Sequence record: NC_105514.1
Strand: one strand, 5' to 3'
Source: Escherichia phage JLBYU40
DNA: 64,000 nt
Within the stretch, counting starts at the first letter, position 1; every line of letters starts with the position of its first letter. Of the stretch, positions 1,576 to 6,967 are shown piece after piece. The notes under the pieces are model-generated. The model was not told the DNA's origin. It searched no databases and worked only from the letters and a program-made list of their open reading frames with translations. A program made the position numbers and the translations under genes.

Positions 1576-3330
1576 TTACGCGAAAAATTTACCGTTTTTA
1601 AAGTCAATCAAAGTACGCTGACCGTTTGCATAGGTAATTAAATGCGTTTGCGTCCAGCTTGACGCGCCAACGTTGTAACCCATATCCAGACTACCAGCTA
1701 CGCCAGCGGTATAAACGCCGCCATAAATGCTTGCCGTATGAGTATGCCCTGTGTTTAATTTGCCCAATTTCTTAAATTGTTTCGGGTTGCCACGGCTGCC
1801 GTTAATGCCATTGTGACCGTGTACGCCGCATTCAATGCCTGCAATTTTAAATGATTGGTCAGTTGTTAGAAAAATGGCGTTAAACTCGCAACCTGCAACC
1901 TTACGCAGCGCATAATCTAGCACGTTGAAAGTATCGTCTTTTTCTGCAATAGCTCCATAAATCGCGGCATTTAGGCGGTGATATAGTTCCGCGTTTGCGG
2001 GGTCGTCTTTAATGTTAGCATTACGATCATCCAGCCAACGGGATAGCGCCAAATCGTGATTCGATTCAACAATGATCGTTTGACTAAAATCACGTTCCAT
2101 CGATTCCAGCACGCGCCCCGTATCGATAAGATCATCCAGAACTTTATCACGTCCGGCGGCATACTGTTTTGCTAGGAATACACCCGAAGCGCGGTTGTGA
2201 TGGTTGCGTGATGTAAAGTCGTGAACGTCATGGATAAACTGATATTTTGGTTTAAGAATATCAAGCAAGCTATTTTCGCCAGCCCATGACGCGGCGGCGC
2301 AATCGTCATCTAATTTTTCAGCGTGAATATCACCATATTGCAAGCCTAAAACATGCCCCGATGTTTCATAACATCCGGCGGGAGTGGCGCAAACATTCAG
2401 ATCATAAAACACGCCGCTTTCGTCCATTGTTTCAAGCTGGCGAACAAAAAATTCCCCGTCGTCGTCGAACTCAACAATCAGCGCCCCGAAATTATGCAGT
2501 GCTTCCGCTTTCTGCCCTGCTTTCTGCTGAATGTAATTTTTGAGCGTTGCCGTTCCGGTTGAATACATGCGGCGCACAATTTCACCTTTTAAAGCTGGCA
2601 CGCTTTCGGCGGTGATTTTAGCGTGACCAATTGCCAGACCTTCAAGATTAAGCGCGGTTGCAGTTTCAGCGAATCCAGATAGCGGATAGTCTGCGGTTGG
2701 CAAAACATTAATTTCAGCCATGAAAGCAAAACGGCGATTATTCAAAAACACGTTTTTGCTGCAAATATATTTATCGAACGCGGAATCATATTTTATTCCA
2801 TCCGCGCCCTCGCCATTTTGGAATCCGTTTTTATTATAAATATACTTAGAAACAAGCAAATCAGCGCCACAATATTTAGCATATTGTTCGAGCGAGGACA
2901 AAAAGTTTTTATGCGGGAACGTATTATTCTGAATCGATGTAATAATAAAGCGTTTACCCTGCTTTACTTCCCATTGTTCAACCGTGCTAGAAACAATCCC
3001 CGCCGCTTCTGGGCGCTCATCGTTTTTAATGGCTTTTGCTGCTTTCGCCGCTTTCGGTTTAGCTGGTTTATTTGCTTCCAACCAATCACAAATGGCGGTC
3101 GAGTGTTTTGTTGTATCGTAGACCGCTTTTGATATATCGTCGCAGACCTCCAGTTTAGTGGCGCGCAGACGTTTACCATAGAAATTAAAGTCAGCGGCCA
3201 TTTTCAGGATAGCGGTTTGTTTTTCTGCGGAAATAATCATAGTATAAAACTCCATTAAAGGGACTAGGTTAATAACGGCAATATTGCCAAATATAACGCC
3301 TATTATTTGAGGCGTTATAATTTGCAACAT
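1576..3330 (-). CDS. A1: pre-early A1-like protein with C-terminal metallophosphoesterase motifs
   Basis: 584 aa; C-terminal GVHGHNGINGS...GHTHT calcineurin-like motifs; size and position match T5 A1. Confidence 0.55.
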   Translation of the reverse strand: MLQIITPQIIGVIFGNIAVINLVPLMEFYTMIISAEKQTAILKMAADFNFYGKRLRATKLEVCDDISKAVYDTTKHSTAICDWLEANKPAKPKAAKAAKAIKNDERPEAAGIVSSTVEQWEVKQGKRFIITSIQNNTFPHKNFLSSLEQYAKYCGADLLVSKYIYNKNGFQNGEGADGIKYDSAFDKYICSKNVFLNNRRFAFMAEINVLPTADYPLSGFAETATALNLEGLAIGHAKITAESVPALKGEIVRRMYSTGTATLKNYIQQKAGQKAEALHNFGALIVEFDDDGEFFVRQLETMDESGVFYDLNVCATPAGCYETSGHVLGLQYGDIHAEKLDDDCAAASWAGENSLLDILKPKYQFIHDVHDFTSRNHHNRASGVFLAKQYAAGRDKVLDDLIDTGRVLESMERDFSQTIIVESNHDLALSRWLDDRNANIKDDPANAELYHRLNAAIYGAIAEKDDTFNVLDYALRKVAGCEFNAIFLTTDQSFKIAGIECGVHGHNGINGSRGNPKQFKKLGKLNTGHTHTASIYGGVYTAGVAGSLDMGYNVGASSWTQTHLITYANGQRTLIDFKNGKFFA

Positions 3331-3528
3331 TTAACTAATCGGCATTAGACTAGAACTAACACCACAAACAACGGCGGCAATAAAGCAAAGTAAGCCTAAA
3401 CGCTTTGCCAATTTAGATTTACGTTTAAAATAATATGAATCTAAATCATTTTGAAAATAAGCGAATAGTAATGAGGCCGCCATAATAAATAAACCTAGAA
3501 TTAACGATTCAGTAGGGTAAAAGATCAT
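3331..3528 (-). CDS. small membrane protein
   Basis: 65 aa, two hydrophobic segments; start abuts A1 stop. Confidence 0.4.
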   Translation of the reverse strand: MIFYPTESLILGLFIMAASLLFAYFQNDLDSYYFKRKSKLAKRLGLLCFIAAVVCGVSSSLMPIS

Positions 3529-3582
3529 TTTAATAACTCCTGATTTAAGGGAAGAAAATAACTATCGCTAAACAGTTATATT

Positions 3583-3609
3583 CTTGCCCCCTCACTAGAA
3601 GGGGGCAAG
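3583..3609 (-). terminator. strong hairpin after the A2-like gene
   Basis: 9-bp G/C stem CTTGCCCCC/GGGGGCAAG. Confidence 0.45.
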
Positions 3610-3618
3610 GTATAACTA

Positions 3619-4026
3619 TTATTCGCCTGCGGCTTGTTTCACTTCATCGGCAACGCCTAACAGTTGCGCTACGGCGTCCAGCGTTTCAAGTTTTGCACTT
3701 TCCAGACTTGCCAGATCGTCGGCGTCTTTAATAATGCCGGAATCGATAGCATGTTTAGCAATAACGCGCACGTAATGCGCTTTGCGGATTGAGCTACCGC
3801 CGCCAACTTTACGCGGCTTATCGCTTTTCTGATACGCTTTTGCGCTGGTCAATTTTGACCGAACGGATACGGGAGAAGCCGCGCCAACTGCTTTTGCAAT
3901 TTCTTTTAAACCGTCGCTATTTGCGAAATCTAAACCGTTTTCATTGATTAACTGCTGGTACATAGAAACAGCTTTCTGAGTGTTTTCTTCATTCCATGAG
4001 AATTTTGCGGTTTTAACGTTAGTCAT
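3619..4026 (-). CDS. A2: pre-early A2-like protein
   Basis: 135 aa; synteny downstream of A1-like gene; strong hairpin terminator follows at 3583-3609. Confidence 0.45.
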   Translation of the reverse strand: MTNVKTAKFSWNEENTQKAVSMYQQLINENGLDFANSDGLKEIAKAVGAASPVSVRSKLTSAKAYQKSDKPRKVGGGSSIRKAHYVRVIAKHAIDSGIIKDADDLASLESAKLETLDAVAQLLGVADEVKQAAGE

Positions 4027-4124
4027 GGTAAAAACTCCTATTAGTTTAATTTAAGGGATAAGATTAACATAATGTTAATCATTATATTCCCCATATTTCA
4101 GAGGAATATAAAGTTAACACTAAA

Positions 4125-4376
4125 TTATAAAACAGCTTCCCATTTTTCGTTGCGTTGAACAACCTTTACAACGTCGCCGGATTTAACGCGAACGCTAAAA
4201 ACGGTTTTGCCGTTGTTACTACGTTCATTTTCAGCGTATACCGCGTCGATTGTATCAAACGGCATAAGCGCCGCACCTTTAATACGTTCGGCTTTTCCGG
4301 TTAATTCATCCGTTTTAGTAACGAAAGGAATAAAAACGGATTGACCAATTTTTGGCGCGGTAATAACGTTTTTCAT
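4125..4376 (-). CDS. hypothetical protein
   Basis: 83 aa ORF. Confidence 0.4.
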   Translation of the reverse strand: MKNVITAPKIGQSVFIPFVTKTDELTGKAERIKGAALMPFDTIDAVYAENERSNNGKTVFSVRVKSGDVVKVVQRNEKWEAVL

Positions 4377-4412
4377 AGTATAAACTCCGAGTTATTTGGT
4401 GGATTGTTCCGC

Positions 4413-4439
4413 ATTACCTGCTGGAAAGTAGCAGGTAAT
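4413..4439. terminator. intergenic hairpin
   Basis: 10-bp stem ATTACCTGCT/AGCAGGTAAT with 7-nt loop. Confidence 0.4.
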
Positions 4440-4574
4440 AAGTAACAATCCGCTCGCCAGTATAATCGATTTAAAGAACTCCACGTAGGCCGCTATATCC
4501 CAGTTAGGGGGCGGGATGCATTATGGTAAGCACCGACCGTCAAATTTTATCAAGTTATCGCTCTTATCGAACTG

Positions 4575-4598
4575 GGTACATCTTAAAACCTATCGGCT
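4575..4598. repeat. left arm of 24-bp inverted repeat
   Basis: GGGTACATCTTAAAACCTATCGGC; 23/24 match to the reverse complement of 4841-4864. Confidence 0.7.
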
Positions 4599-4604
4599 AG
4601 GTTG

Positions 4605-4808
4605 TCAAACTATTTTTTGCAGTTTTTTATGATTTTCTTTCAGGTCAATCATAATATTGCGCCAGATCATTTCCAGACCTTGCTGGCGGCCTTTCTTGTA
4701 CTGCTTAAATCGCCATTTTACCGATCTTTGCGCTACTGTCAACAATTTTTTAGTTTCGCTATCCAGTGCCTTGCTAGGTTTACCAGTGATCAATAAAGTT
4801 TGTTTCAT
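4605..4808 (-). CDS. small basic protein flanked by 24-bp inverted repeats
   Basis: 67 aa, K/R-rich; bracketed by near-perfect inverted repeats at 4575-4598 and 4841-4864. Confidence 0.35.
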   Translation of the reverse strand: MKQTLLITGKPSKALDSETKKLLTVAQRSVKWRFKQYKKGRQQGLEMIWRNIMIDLKENHKKLQKIV

Positions 4809-4840
4809 ATCGTCGATTCCTTATATTATATAAGTTTACC

Positions 4841-4864
4841 GCCGATAGGCTTTAAGATGTACCC
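4841..4864. repeat. right arm of 24-bp inverted repeat
   Basis: GCCGATAGGCTTTAAGATGTACCC. Confidence 0.7.
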
Positions 4865-5581
4865 AATTTTTAAAGAGCGTGGCGGTAAACTTCCCGCCGT
4901 GTAGTTCGTCATTGCCGCCCTACGAGGTAAATACTAGCAAATACCAAAAATGGCGCAACCTTATTTTTGTAAAGAAACGTAAAGACACGATTCACCGGAT
5001 GGCGTGCGGCGACCTGGGCGCGGCGCATTAAAATTAAAGGAAACGGGCGCGCGAATACCACAAAACATAGCAGATAGGCAAGTAATTTTTTCATTTATAT
5101 TTGCTTTGCCCTACTTGACAAAATCTAAAAAGCTCAGGGTAGCGATAAACGGGCTATCCCTTTATGATGGGATGCCTGAAAAATTTACCGCGTCAGAAAG
5201 CGTTTTAGGCGGCTTATTTTCGATTTAACAAATATTTAACAAAAGCAAAATTGAAAAATAGTTGAAAAAGGTCTTGACTTTTAAAAATCAAGACTAAACG
5301 AGTTATTTTATAAAATTAATTAATTGACTTTTGTTTGTTGTTGTGTATTAGAAAGATAGCAGACTAATAATTACTAGAATGATAATCATGCTGGTGGATT
5401 GTAACAGCCTGAACCATTAGCAGACTATTAATCACGGAAAATCTCATTAGCCAACTAACTATTTCATGATATATAATATACTTATAAATTAATGAGAAAT
5501 AATAAGTATAATAAATAATAACTACAGTAAATAATAACTATAAGAAATTATCGGCCTAAGTGAGAACCACTATCATTTAAG

Positions 5582-5689
5582 TTATCCACAAGTTTATTAA
5601 CAGCACAAAATGATTTGACACGATAGGCGGCGATATAAAGACTTATCTACAGACTTATCCACAGGTTATCCTACTGTATAAATATACAG
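5582..5689. repeat. left arm of ~110-bp imperfect inverted repeat with DnaA boxes
   Basis: TTATCCACA at 5582-5590 and 5655-5663, TTATCTACA at 5643, palindrome CTGTATAAATATACAG at 5674-5689. Confidence 0.65.
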
Positions 5690-5956
5690 GGTAAATGGGT
5701 AGTATATTATAAGGATGTCGATTTTAAGCGGCCTAAAACGCTTTCTAACGAGCTAAATGCGGTGGGGTAATATTAAAGTAAAGCCTTCACCCGTCGCCCT
5801 GGTGGCTTCGCCGTGTTTTGCTCTTTATTACACCGCTGCGCGGTTATCATAAAAATATGCGCTAGGCAAGGAAAATAAAAAGGTAAAATAATCTTTGCCT
5901 ATGCTAGAAAATTACCTTTATCATTCACTCACCGATTAACGAGGGAGGCTGAACAA

Positions 5957-6967
5957 ATGAGGCTTTATAAACCTGATAATGCCACCGTTTTAAAAGGTGC
6001 ATTGCGCAACCTGCTGGACGGTAGCAAGTCAACCAGCATTAAACATTTTATTAACAAGGTTGAAACTATTCATCAAAACTTTTTTGATGAATATGACGCC
6101 TATGATATGGATAGTTTTCTACCCTTATATAAGCAAGGGGCAACGCTAGTTTTATATAATCGGGATTGCCATATCTTTACAGGCAGGGGAGCGGGACCGG
6201 ATACCGATTTTATTGTTGCGCAGGGCAATACTATTGTTGCGTATCATAGCAATTCAGGCCGTCAATCATTTAATATAAATGCTTTTGAGCTTATTGGGCT
6301 TGATCTTATAAACGGGCTTTCTAGCATTGAGGGATTTTTAGATGTTATCTGGAAGTATTTACCCGCTGGATGGTATAAGCCGGATAATGACGGATCTCAA
6401 TATACCGCTATAATGGCTTTTGATGGCGATGGTAATTTTTTGTTACCTTCGAAATTATACCCTTATGTATATAATGATCTAATAGAAGAGGCTGGTTTTT
6501 CTTTCTGGAAAGATGATGATCAGCCCATTGACAATATAGAAAACCATGCTGTAAATTCTAACACTCAAAGCGTTAACACTCAAACTACTGAAAACAAAGG
6601 AAAAAATACCATGACCAAGATCGCTAATATCGTTGCCGCTAATAAATCCGCCGTTGTAAATGCTGCAAAACTGGAAGCGGGTAAAATTGCACTGACTCAA
6701 ATTACGAAAGTAGCGGCTAAAAAAGCACCGTTCATGATTAAAGGTTATATTGATACACCTATCGGTCGAGTAGTGATTGCCAACCTGCTGAGCGTAGCGG
6801 TTGACCAGTATGCCCCGAACAACCAGAAAGCGAAAGCGGTAGCAGGTGCAGCTATGGAAGCGGCTATGTTAGAAATGGTACAAAGTTTCAATATTGCTGA
6901 AATGATTGATGAAATGGTAAAAGGTATTGATATTTCTACTTTTACTACTAACACTGAAAGCGAGTAA
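5957..6967 (+). CDS. hypothetical pre-early protein (336 aa)
   Basis: RBS GAGGGAGG upstream of ATG; first gene of plus-strand cassette between inverted-repeat arms. Confidence 0.55.
   Translation: MRLYKPDNATVLKGALRNLLDGSKSTSIKHFINKVETIHQNFFDEYDAYDMDSFLPLYKQGATLVLYNRDCHIFTGRGAGPDTDFIVAQGNTIVAYHSNSGRQSFNINAFELIGLDLINGLSSIEGFLDVIWKYLPAGWYKPDNDGSQYTAIMAFDGDGNFLLPSKLYPYVYNDLIEEAGFSFWKDDDQPIDNIENHAVNSNTQSVNTQTTENKGKNTMTKIANIVAANKSAVVNAAKLEAGKIALTQITKVAAKKAPFMIKGYIDTPIGRVVIANLLSVAVDQYAPNNQKAKAVAGAAMEAAMLEMVQSFNIAEMIDEMVKGIDISTFTTNTESE

Follow-up and report, generated by a model that had tools for sequence, protein, structure and literature searches.

The window analysed in this study, a stretch of 64,000 nucleotides (nt) of Escherichia phage JLBYU40 (NC_105514.1), carries near its left end an inverted repeat that encloses one small gene, hdi. 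The original prediction, made from the letters of the window alone, had proposed a near-perfect 24-bp inverted repeat around a single small K/R-rich open reading frame (ORF), and both observations were confirmed. GGGTACATCTTAAAACCTATCGGC at 4574-4597 is complementary at 23 of 24 positions to its partner at 4841-4864 on the opposite strand, the left arm having been placed one base too high before, and exactly one ORF of at least 30 amino acids (aa) lies inside the repeat on the minus strand, with 13 K and 4 R versus 5 D/E among its 67 aa. On this coding strand the arm at 4841-4864 precedes hdi (leader arm) and the arm at 4574-4597 follows it (trailer arm). The features of the locus are listed in Table 1.

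The enclosed ORF matched PF24188 (DUF7416) with an E value of 1.2e-35 and 121 bits (cutoff 27), and it is 88% identical to T5.008 of phage T5, which lies at the same locus. T5.008 is Hdi, which inhibits the formation of the FtsZ ring and lends T5 a competitive edge (Mahata et al. 2023, PMC10714956), and the 88% identity suggests that the Hdi of the window would also inhibit FtsZ. In an alignment of 39 sequences, the diversity of hdi was 0.235 at third codon positions, 0.121 at first and 0.096 at second positions, a pattern that fits a translated gene. The protein family is narrow, comprising 62 clusters that all belong to DUF7416 at 73-94% identity and that come from T5-like phages wherever the source was named; more distant Hdi-like ORFs were found in Sugarlandvirus and in phage My1. 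The leader arm is separated from hdi by 32 nt, the Shine-Dalgarno sequence included.

About 1.5 kb around the repeat matched 452 phage records at 80-95% identity, nearly all of them Tequintavirus or Epseptimavirus from Salmonella and Escherichia. The neighbouring genes are T5 pre-early genes, indicating that the window opens with first-step-transfer DNA, the left terminal repeat of a T5-like phage (Tequintavirus). T5 itself also carries the inverted repeat; in its record "inverted repeat A" (IRA) and "A'" (IRA') are annotated at 4682-4706 and 4950-4974, respectively (AY587007, Wang et al. 2005). The T5 arms (locus L003 of our comparison set, 4683-4706 / 4950-4973) each differ from the arms of the window at one base, the flanks are 89.7% identical, 243 nt lie between the arms in both phages, and the T5.007-T5.009 position is the same. 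The repeat of the window is the orthologue of IRA/IRA' in Repeat Region 1, with no structural difference, and both the repeat (IRA/IRA') and the enclosed gene (Hdi) were already known. In a comparison of 25 T5-like phages by Davison (bioRxiv 10.1101/866236), Repeat Region 1 was described as conserved and "untranslated" and was given no function; the region is in fact translated, because hdi sits between the arms.

Complementarity of the arms in T5-type phages

Repeat-finding extended the repeat to 39 nt at 85% (4559-4597 / 4841-4879). As RNA, this corresponds to 28 contiguous pairs, a 4 × 4 internal loop and 7 further pairs, and the sole mismatch of the 24 core positions becomes a G·U wobble in the minus-strand RNA. 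A search for further copies of the arms with up to 3 mismatches found none in the 64-kb window and 0 in 100 dinucleotide shuffles, and a hand estimate put the chance expectation of a 23/24 inverted repeat within 1 kb across 64 kb at about 1e-5. When the minus-strand RNA of 4540-4910 was folded, the long-range helix was present in both the minimum free energy (MFE) and the centroid structures (-115.7 kcal/mol, z = -9.5, 0 of 100 shuffles), while the leader by itself was predicted to have no strong local structure. The terminator scan for an intrinsic terminator was empty at both arms, with a sequence 3' of the trailer arm that is not U-rich, and a scan of 3500-6200 with Rfam covariance models gave no match at E <= 1.

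IMG/VR, metagenomes and GenBank phages supplied about 60 loci for comparison, just 16 of which were contributed by the T5.007-based metagenome scan (about 530 Demerecviridae genomes exist). For the T5-type phages, a structure of 35 pairs was evaluated over 33 distinct sequences of boxA (see below) plus arms, which are related by descent, so that cell counts overstate the number of independent events. Of the 1147 pair cells 99.1% were standard, and five pairs had changed on both sides. None of 500 shuffles equalled the observed value, and pairing with a slid partner gave 30-40%. The changes on both sides included U-A to A-U in Epseptimavirus, C-G through U-G to U-A in the T5-type set, and C-G to U-A in DT57C; locus L016 had a 1-nt insertion in each arm. 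On the coding strand AGTTCGATAAGAGCG comes after the trailer arm, and its final seven bases pair with CGCTCTT of boxA; this outer helix (helix 1) was paired in 98.7% of the cells in the T5-type set. The helix runs unbroken through boxA in phage 2-3 (L092), and in L069-L072 a second boxA stands in place of the outer helix strand. An inner 3-bp extension of the helix (GGU/ACC) was not conserved and was therefore excluded.

The remaining variation depended on the strand. There were 79 G·U cells at 11 coding-strand pairs, some of them in 9-28 of the 33 sequences, versus 6 A·C cells, each confined to one sequence, and the coding strand was 99.1% paired versus 92.8% for the opposite strand. Outside the arms the transition sites were strand-symmetric (64 vs 65) and 53% of the substitutions were transversions, so a mutation bias fails to explain the G·U pattern. 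Two P values were derived by hand and, since both treat sites as independent, are indicative only: about 0.003 for 5 of 6 uncompensated arm changes being of the G·U type, given the background proportion, and about 0.007 (Fisher) for the non-singleton variants, which were 8 of 11 for G·U versus 0 of 6 for A·C. The nucleotide diversity was 0.044 in the leader arm and about 0.04 in the arms, compared with 0.10-0.23 in the ORF and 0.15 in the downstream spacer. The enclosed coding sequence is 2-5 times as diverse as the arms, and the leader arm is as conserved as the trailer arm.

A boxA element beside the leader arm

The coding strand reads CGCTCTTTAAAAATT at 4879-4865, abutting the leader arm, and CGCTCTTTA (4871-4879, minus strand) agrees with the boxA consensus on the transcribed strand. 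The only exact occurrence of GCTCTTTAAMAA in the window is this boxA, and its columns 4-15 were invariant across the 33 distinct T5-type sequences. Using the rrn and lambda boxA sequences of PMC2724277 as references, CGCUCUUUA was seen to merge the lambda type (CGCUCUUA) and the rrn type (UGCUCUUUA); AAAAUU after boxA matches the nutL spacer (cgcucuuaaaaauuaa), and CAC ahead of boxA matches the rrn flank (CACugcucuuuaacaauuua). A boxA acts only in RNA.

The small hairpin GGCGG-N8-CCGCC upstream of boxA is kept in T5-type phages and in Erwinia phage KEY. In L005 and L007 its loop is inverted relative to the other phages (GAAGTTTA vs TAAACTTC), which is a loop flip at the DNA level. A 12/12 local repeat (4832-4843 / 4881-4892), within which boxA and the leader arm would be enclosed, was considered as a "switch" hairpin and rejected, its pairing being lost in L005 and L007 and absent from the MFE fold. 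Further upstream, a hydrophobic ORF of 61 aa (SPC35_0008-like) lies at 4909-5094 on the minus strand, of which T5.009 is a truncated form of 35 aa. A second boxA, TGCTCTTTA, of the exact rrn type, was found at 5800-5827 on the plus strand, with a small G+C hairpin just ahead of it; the first rightward pre-early gene (5957) lies about 130 nt downstream. This boxA is kept in T5, SPC35, oldekolle and DT57C, and the annotated rightward promoters of T5 sit downstream of it.

Promoters around the repeat

The promoter features of T5 were taken from the annotation of AY543070 and AY587007; candidate sequences for the T5 promoters PH207 and PD/E20 had no match in the T5 terminal repeat and were dropped. 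The -35 box TTGACA of T5P1 (4608-4603) overlaps the stop codon of hdi (4605-4607), and the spacer and -10 of this promoter lie inside the trailer arm. Because the trailer arm forms that promoter core, the leader arm is the reverse complement of the spacer and -10 of the next promoter. The genome is compact, so that beyond the ORF only the trailer strand is non-coding, and the next promoter has its core there. We also rejected a divergent promoter within the leader arm, mirroring the trailer promoter, there being no -35 at the needed spacing in T5-type phages or in PR1. The near-consensus promoter P-H 22 is kept in the hdi of T5-type phages and Epseptimavirus and is missing from the divergent Hdi-like gene of L072; transcripts starting there would hold the trailer arm only.

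The promoter scan and the alignment revealed no conserved promoter between the leader arm and the start of hdi, so transcription of hdi would start further upstream, and its 5' untranslated region (UTR) would contain the leader arm. A TATAAT found there in the window was rejected as a promoter, being unconserved and having no -35. For the hdi-side boxA in the window the promoter scan placed no promoter with confidence; a weak candidate, TTGCGC-16-TAGTAT, lies at the stop codon of the 61-aa ORF, where the promoter of the hdi leader might be.

Table 1. Features at the hdi locus of the window, in order of position
Feature	Position	Strand	Identification and remarks
A1	1576-3330	-	T5 pre-early gene
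A2	3619-4026	-	T5 pre-early gene
T5.007	4125-4376	-	T5 pre-early gene
Outer 7-bp helix strand AAGAGCG	4559..4565	-	Pairs with boxA CGCUCUU (4873-4879); T5-type phages only
Trailer (3') arm GCCGAUAGGUUUUAAGAUGUACCC	4574..4597	-	T5 'inverted repeat A'; also spacer and -10 of the next promoter
Sigma-70-type promoter TTGACA-17-TAAGAT (T5 'T5P1')	4580..4608	-	Promoter prediction and T5 annotation
hdi (T5.008 homologue), 67 aa, Pfam DUF7416	4605..4808	-	PF24188, phrog_4718, likeness to T5.008
Internal promoter TTGACA-16-TAAAAT within hdi (T5 'P-H 22')	4715..4742	-	Prediction and AY543070 annotation
Shine-Dalgarno AAGGAA of hdi	4817..4822	-	In the loop, outside the helix; conserved in the alignment
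Leader (5') arm GGGUACAUCUUAAAGCCUAUCGGC	4841..4864	-	T5 'inverted repeat A''
boxA-like element CGCUCUUUAAAAAUU	4865..4879	-	Directly 5' of the leader arm; sequence match
Small hairpin GGCGG-N8-CCGCC	4881..4898	-	Just upstream of boxA, the boxB position of rrn leaders; predicted folds

The same layout in other Demerecviridae

The layout of boxA, arm, one or two small ORFs and promoter-bearing arm was found in six Demerecviridae lineages with differing arm sequences. In the distant lineages, too, the cassettes lie ahead of A2 in the leftward pre-early operon, directly upstream of the T5.007 homologue where there is one. Sugarlandvirus (Roth50 and four others) has arms of about 29 nt that contain a single bulge and two G·U but no A·C, around two ORFs of which the second is Hdi-like. 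Two ORFs are also enclosed in Erwinia phage KEY (arms of 25 nt, 24/25) and in its metagenomic relative L089 (25/25), the latter differing from KEY by two changes, one compensatory on both sides and one mending a C·A mismatch. Two adjacent cassettes were present in Providencia phage PR1 (L094, 4300-5185), with arms of 27 and 23 nt, each 96%, and one ORF each, and again in Pectobacterium phage My1 (L093, 6360-7050), with arms of 38 and 16 nt and with one ORF and two ORFs (one Hdi-like), respectively. The arm pairs of the two PR1 cassettes do not match each other, and neither do those of My1; such cassette-specific arms are required for correct RNA pairing, not by a shared DNA-binding protein. 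When the PR1 double cassette and KEY were folded, the helices appeared in both MFE and centroid structures, with boxA unpaired.

In 11 of 11 cassettes boxA ends 2-18 nt ahead of the leader arm or overlaps it, and all 11 have a promoter of the form TTGACA/TTGCAA-17(18)-TAnnAT with its -10 within the trailer arm. Behind the trailer arm, at a distance of 3-21 nt, comes another boxA in KEY, PR1, Sugarlandvirus and Epseptimavirus, the next boxA lies inside the trailer arm itself in My1 I1, and PR1 has three successive copies (5166-5174, 4718-4726 and 4308-4316). A boxA follows each of the tandem cassettes of PR1 and My1, and in these cassettes, as in KEY, Sugarlandvirus and Epseptimavirus, a predicted promoter precedes a boxA by 3-21 nt. 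The unit is thus promoter, boxA, leader arm, ORF(s) and a trailer arm doubling as the next promoter.

The content of the cassette varied between identical arms, with hdi alone in T5 and the window, an ORF of about 52 aa plus hdi in L016 and L034, and a 56-aa ORF replacing hdi in DT57C and a relative, L062; a weak likeness links this 56-aa ORF to the first of the two ORFs in the Sugarlandvirus cassette. The ribosome-binding site (RBS) region and the -35 are conserved along with the arms, and the variable part is the coding sequence in a fixed regulatory frame. Homologous recombination that removed or exchanged ORFs, rather than transposition, seems to be the source of this variation.

A scan of viral contigs for the exact pattern CGCTCTTTAACAAT gave mostly unrelated contigs among the matches listed, four having a helix after boxA. 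One of these four, the unclassified viral contig L097 (IMGVR_UViG_3300013837_000006), looks to carry this same module and has on its minus strand, at about 2590-2830, a boxA, a 25-nt arm, a 36-aa ORF, a complementary arm and a second boxA, with a tail-spike-like gene about 1.7 kb from the module, so the module may occur beyond the phages compared. The match in L117, in a replication-gene context, may be due to chance.

Other observations near the locus

The intergenic regions of the leftward operon contain further hairpins with arms of 20-22 nt that are about 86% complementary, at 4401-4451 (in the 5' UTR of T5.007), 3280-3331 and 781-827, the first and the last having GCATTACCnGCT / AGCnGGTAAT in common. 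All three are possible additional elements of processing or stability. A 41-nt inverted repeat (83%; 5183-5223 / 5718-5758) brackets a non-coding stretch in which TTATCCACA forms paired DnaA boxes (5582-5594 and 5655-5667); stretches aligned with IRB/IRB' of T5 are part of this repeat, which surrounds the IRC-spacer-IRD region discussed by Davison. The longest ORF of A1 (1576-3330, minus strand) has 584 aa, and its match to the phrog profile begins at residue 38. It has an N-terminal extension relative to both the profile and the annotated A1 of T5, and the true A1 start is probably internal to this ORF.

Discussion

On balance, and with limited confidence, we favour the view that the two arms form an rrn-like leader-trailer helix in the leftward pre-early mRNA, led by boxA and with a trailer strand that is also a promoter. 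The original prediction had offered, as RNA, a stem around the cistron serving processing or translational control. The long stem is favoured by the compensatory changes, the coding-strand wobble, the abutting boxA and the recurrence of the layout with other arms; occlusion of translation is unlikely, because the Shine-Dalgarno sequence and start codon are looped out, at a distance of 19-33 nt from the helix. The helix is probably an RNase III or stability element.

Under this leader-trailer reading, transcription from a promoter upstream of 4880 would produce in turn the hairpin, boxA, the leader arm, hdi with its own Shine-Dalgarno sequence and the trailer arm. The trailer, once transcribed, would pair with the leader and loop out hdi, forming a duplex with a core of 24 bp and a length of up to 35 bp. 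By analogy with rrn, boxA would recruit NusB/NusE and render the polymerase resistant to Rho through the long untranslated leader, and the bound factors may tether the leader strand near the RNA exit. The duplex of 24-35 bp would be a substrate of RNase III, and a cut would separate hdi from the T5.007-A2-A1-dmp message; alternatively, the duplex might shield the ends of the hdi mRNA. Transcripts from P-H 22 or from the trailer-arm promoter would carry one arm at most and so be unaffected. Pairing of the T5-type trailer with boxA may release the Nus factors after the cassette, or may merely reflect the origin of the repeat at the DNA level. Nus binding, RNase III cleavage and an effect on Hdi expression are in this way suggested by the analogy.

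Several points weigh against this interpretation. Co-transcription of both arms is deduced from two points, namely that a boxA has meaning only in RNA and that no conserved promoter separates the leader arm from the ATG; the scan placed no upstream promoter with confidence. Matching arms would also result from two sites of one DNA-binding protein or from gene conversion. The near-invariance of the arms across T5 and Epseptimavirus exceeds the needs of a helix and suggests an extra sequence-specific constraint, such as the promoter or a protein. Counted by site, the bias towards wobbles is modest (11 G·U vs 6 A·C) and draws chiefly on frequencies among related, non-independent sequences, and C·A or A·A are among the rare imperfect pairs of KEY, PR1 and DT57C. 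The outer helix of T5-type phages pairs with boxA itself, which fits awkwardly with NusB/NusE holding boxA. The spacing of boxA and boxC in rrn is 18-19 nt (PMC10250234), versus 2-7 nt between boxA and arm in most cassettes, the exceptions being 18 nt in My1 I3 and the overlap of arm and boxA in My1 I1. Finally, RNase III cleavage cannot be predicted from sequence.

Among the other explanations, a pair of DNA operators has the most to recommend it, though we regard it as improbable. Both arms would then bind the same protein (a regulator of the pre-early class, for instance A2 or A1, or a host factor) for repression or looping, for example in pre-early shut-off. Such an arrangement agrees with the coincidence of the trailer arm with the promoter spacer and -10 and with the near-invariance of both arms across T5 and Epseptimavirus while the ORF diverges, and two sites of one protein would co-vary as a helix does. 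However, the differing arms of adjacent cassettes in PR1 and My1 would demand one protein each, fully paired arms of 24-38 bp are unusually long for an operator half-site, and in every lineage the upstream arm is joined directly to boxA, a signal of RNA only. The wobble pattern also speaks against operators, as common variants occur only as coding-strand G·U and a double-stranded site is blind to G·U versus A·C.

We consider it quite unlikely that the arms serve as a recombination frame or mobile module, either as homology for swapping small pre-early cassettes or as ends resembling those of the miniature inverted-repeat element that had been proposed for this DNA. The terminal inverted repeats of such an element are present, the ORF content varies between identical arms, and other ORFs occupy the equivalent frames of KEY and PR1. 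But inverted repeats would invert the enclosed DNA rather than excise it, and no inverted orientation occurred among the approximately 60 loci; the points of exchange coincide with the ORF boundaries, interior to the arms, and both the RBS region and the -35 are conserved too. For a mobile element, there was no second copy in the window and no target-site duplication, the flanks cgaact / aatttt (24-nt arms) and caagttat / tggcggta (39-nt arms) not being direct repeats. The gene inside is functional and characterised, and the downstream arm is a conserved promoter core. In the presence/absence comparison that had been suggested for this locus, which covered approximately 60 related loci, no empty site was found, and the arms were kept while the ORF content varied. 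Recombination would also leave the complementarity, the wobble bias and boxA unexplained, and module exchange is better seen as a consequence of the conserved flanks than as their purpose. It is very unlikely that the repeat is a functionless inverted duplication of the promoter region whose upstream copy was kept by linkage or by constraint on boxA or the hdi leader, for although the repeat reaches into boxA in phage 2-3 and T5-type phages, as an inverted duplication of DNA would, and the flip of the nearby hairpin loop shows that palindrome events at the DNA level happen here, the leader arm has no -35 and is no promoter yet is conserved like the trailer arm, and complementarity survives substitutions, an indel and full sequence turnover between lineages.

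The leader-trailer helix favoured here has its closest parallel in rrn operons. The rrn leader consists of the boxB hairpin, boxA and boxC, the latter lying in the leader strand of a helix that flanks 16S rRNA and holds the RNase III site, and NusB-bound boxA has been proposed to keep the leader strand by the RNA exit until the trailer emerges (PMC10250234). The order of hairpin, boxA, leader strand, product and trailer strand is common to both, as is a long-range duplex of more than 17 bp bracketing the product, here supported by covariation in the T5-type set, and the boxA of KEY, My1 and PR1, CGCUCUUUAACAAU, can be compared with ugcucuuuaacaauuua of rrn. The bracketed product differs, being a protein-coding cistron of 204 nt instead of a stable RNA, hence the locus is a variant and not a member of this class; in addition, the trailer strand here also serves as a promoter, and Nus binding and RNase III cleavage are proposed by analogy. 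The nut sites of lambda likewise place boxA near the promoter of an early phage transcript, and the T5-type boxA with its spacer resembles nutL cgcucuuaaaaauuaa, but no boxB hairpin follows the T5-type boxA, the adjoining element being a strand of the long-range helix. The RNase III sites in the early mRNA of T7 are local hairpins between cistrons in a transcript made by host RNA polymerase. They share with the present case the intercistronic double-stranded RNA in an early phage mRNA made by that polymerase, whereas the strands here are 243-406 nt apart and enclose a cistron. The promoter-early stem-loop (PeSL) cassettes of T4-type phages have motifs repeated in direct orientation, with local stem-loops, for which a role in recombination is proposed. 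Small early ORFs framed by repeated promoter-plus-structure motifs, with content that varies among relatives, are common to both systems, whereas the repeats here are inverted, cassette-specific and complementary over a long range.

A literature search on T5 together with boxA, NusB or RNase III returned nothing relevant, within an incomplete coverage that does not prove absence. The boxA beside the arm, the overlap of promoter and arm, the recurring module and the covariation and wobble patterns are new here, an architecture that our search did not find in the accessible literature. Ever since the genome was sequenced, the repeats in this part of it have been listed with no assigned role, and IRA/IRA' would gain one if our interpretation is true. 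For practical work, the arms overlap a promoter and flank the toxic hdi, so that deletion or replacement of hdi when T5-like phages are engineered could disturb expression of the essential A1 and A2 downstream.

T5's pre-early genes shut the host down within minutes, and the organisation of their expression is poorly understood. Only tentatively would we extend the interpretation to the whole of these operons in T5-like phages, which may be built of repeated rrn-like modules using the host Nus complex and RNA helices, probably cut by RNase III, to transcribe and apportion small host-takeover cistrons such as hdi during the first minutes after infection. If true, T5-like phages would bear a host-type boxA in both pre-early operons and so would probably be Nus-dependent, and the rrn design of leader-trailer helix plus antitermination would extend to mRNAs, as the first case for protein-coding cistrons.

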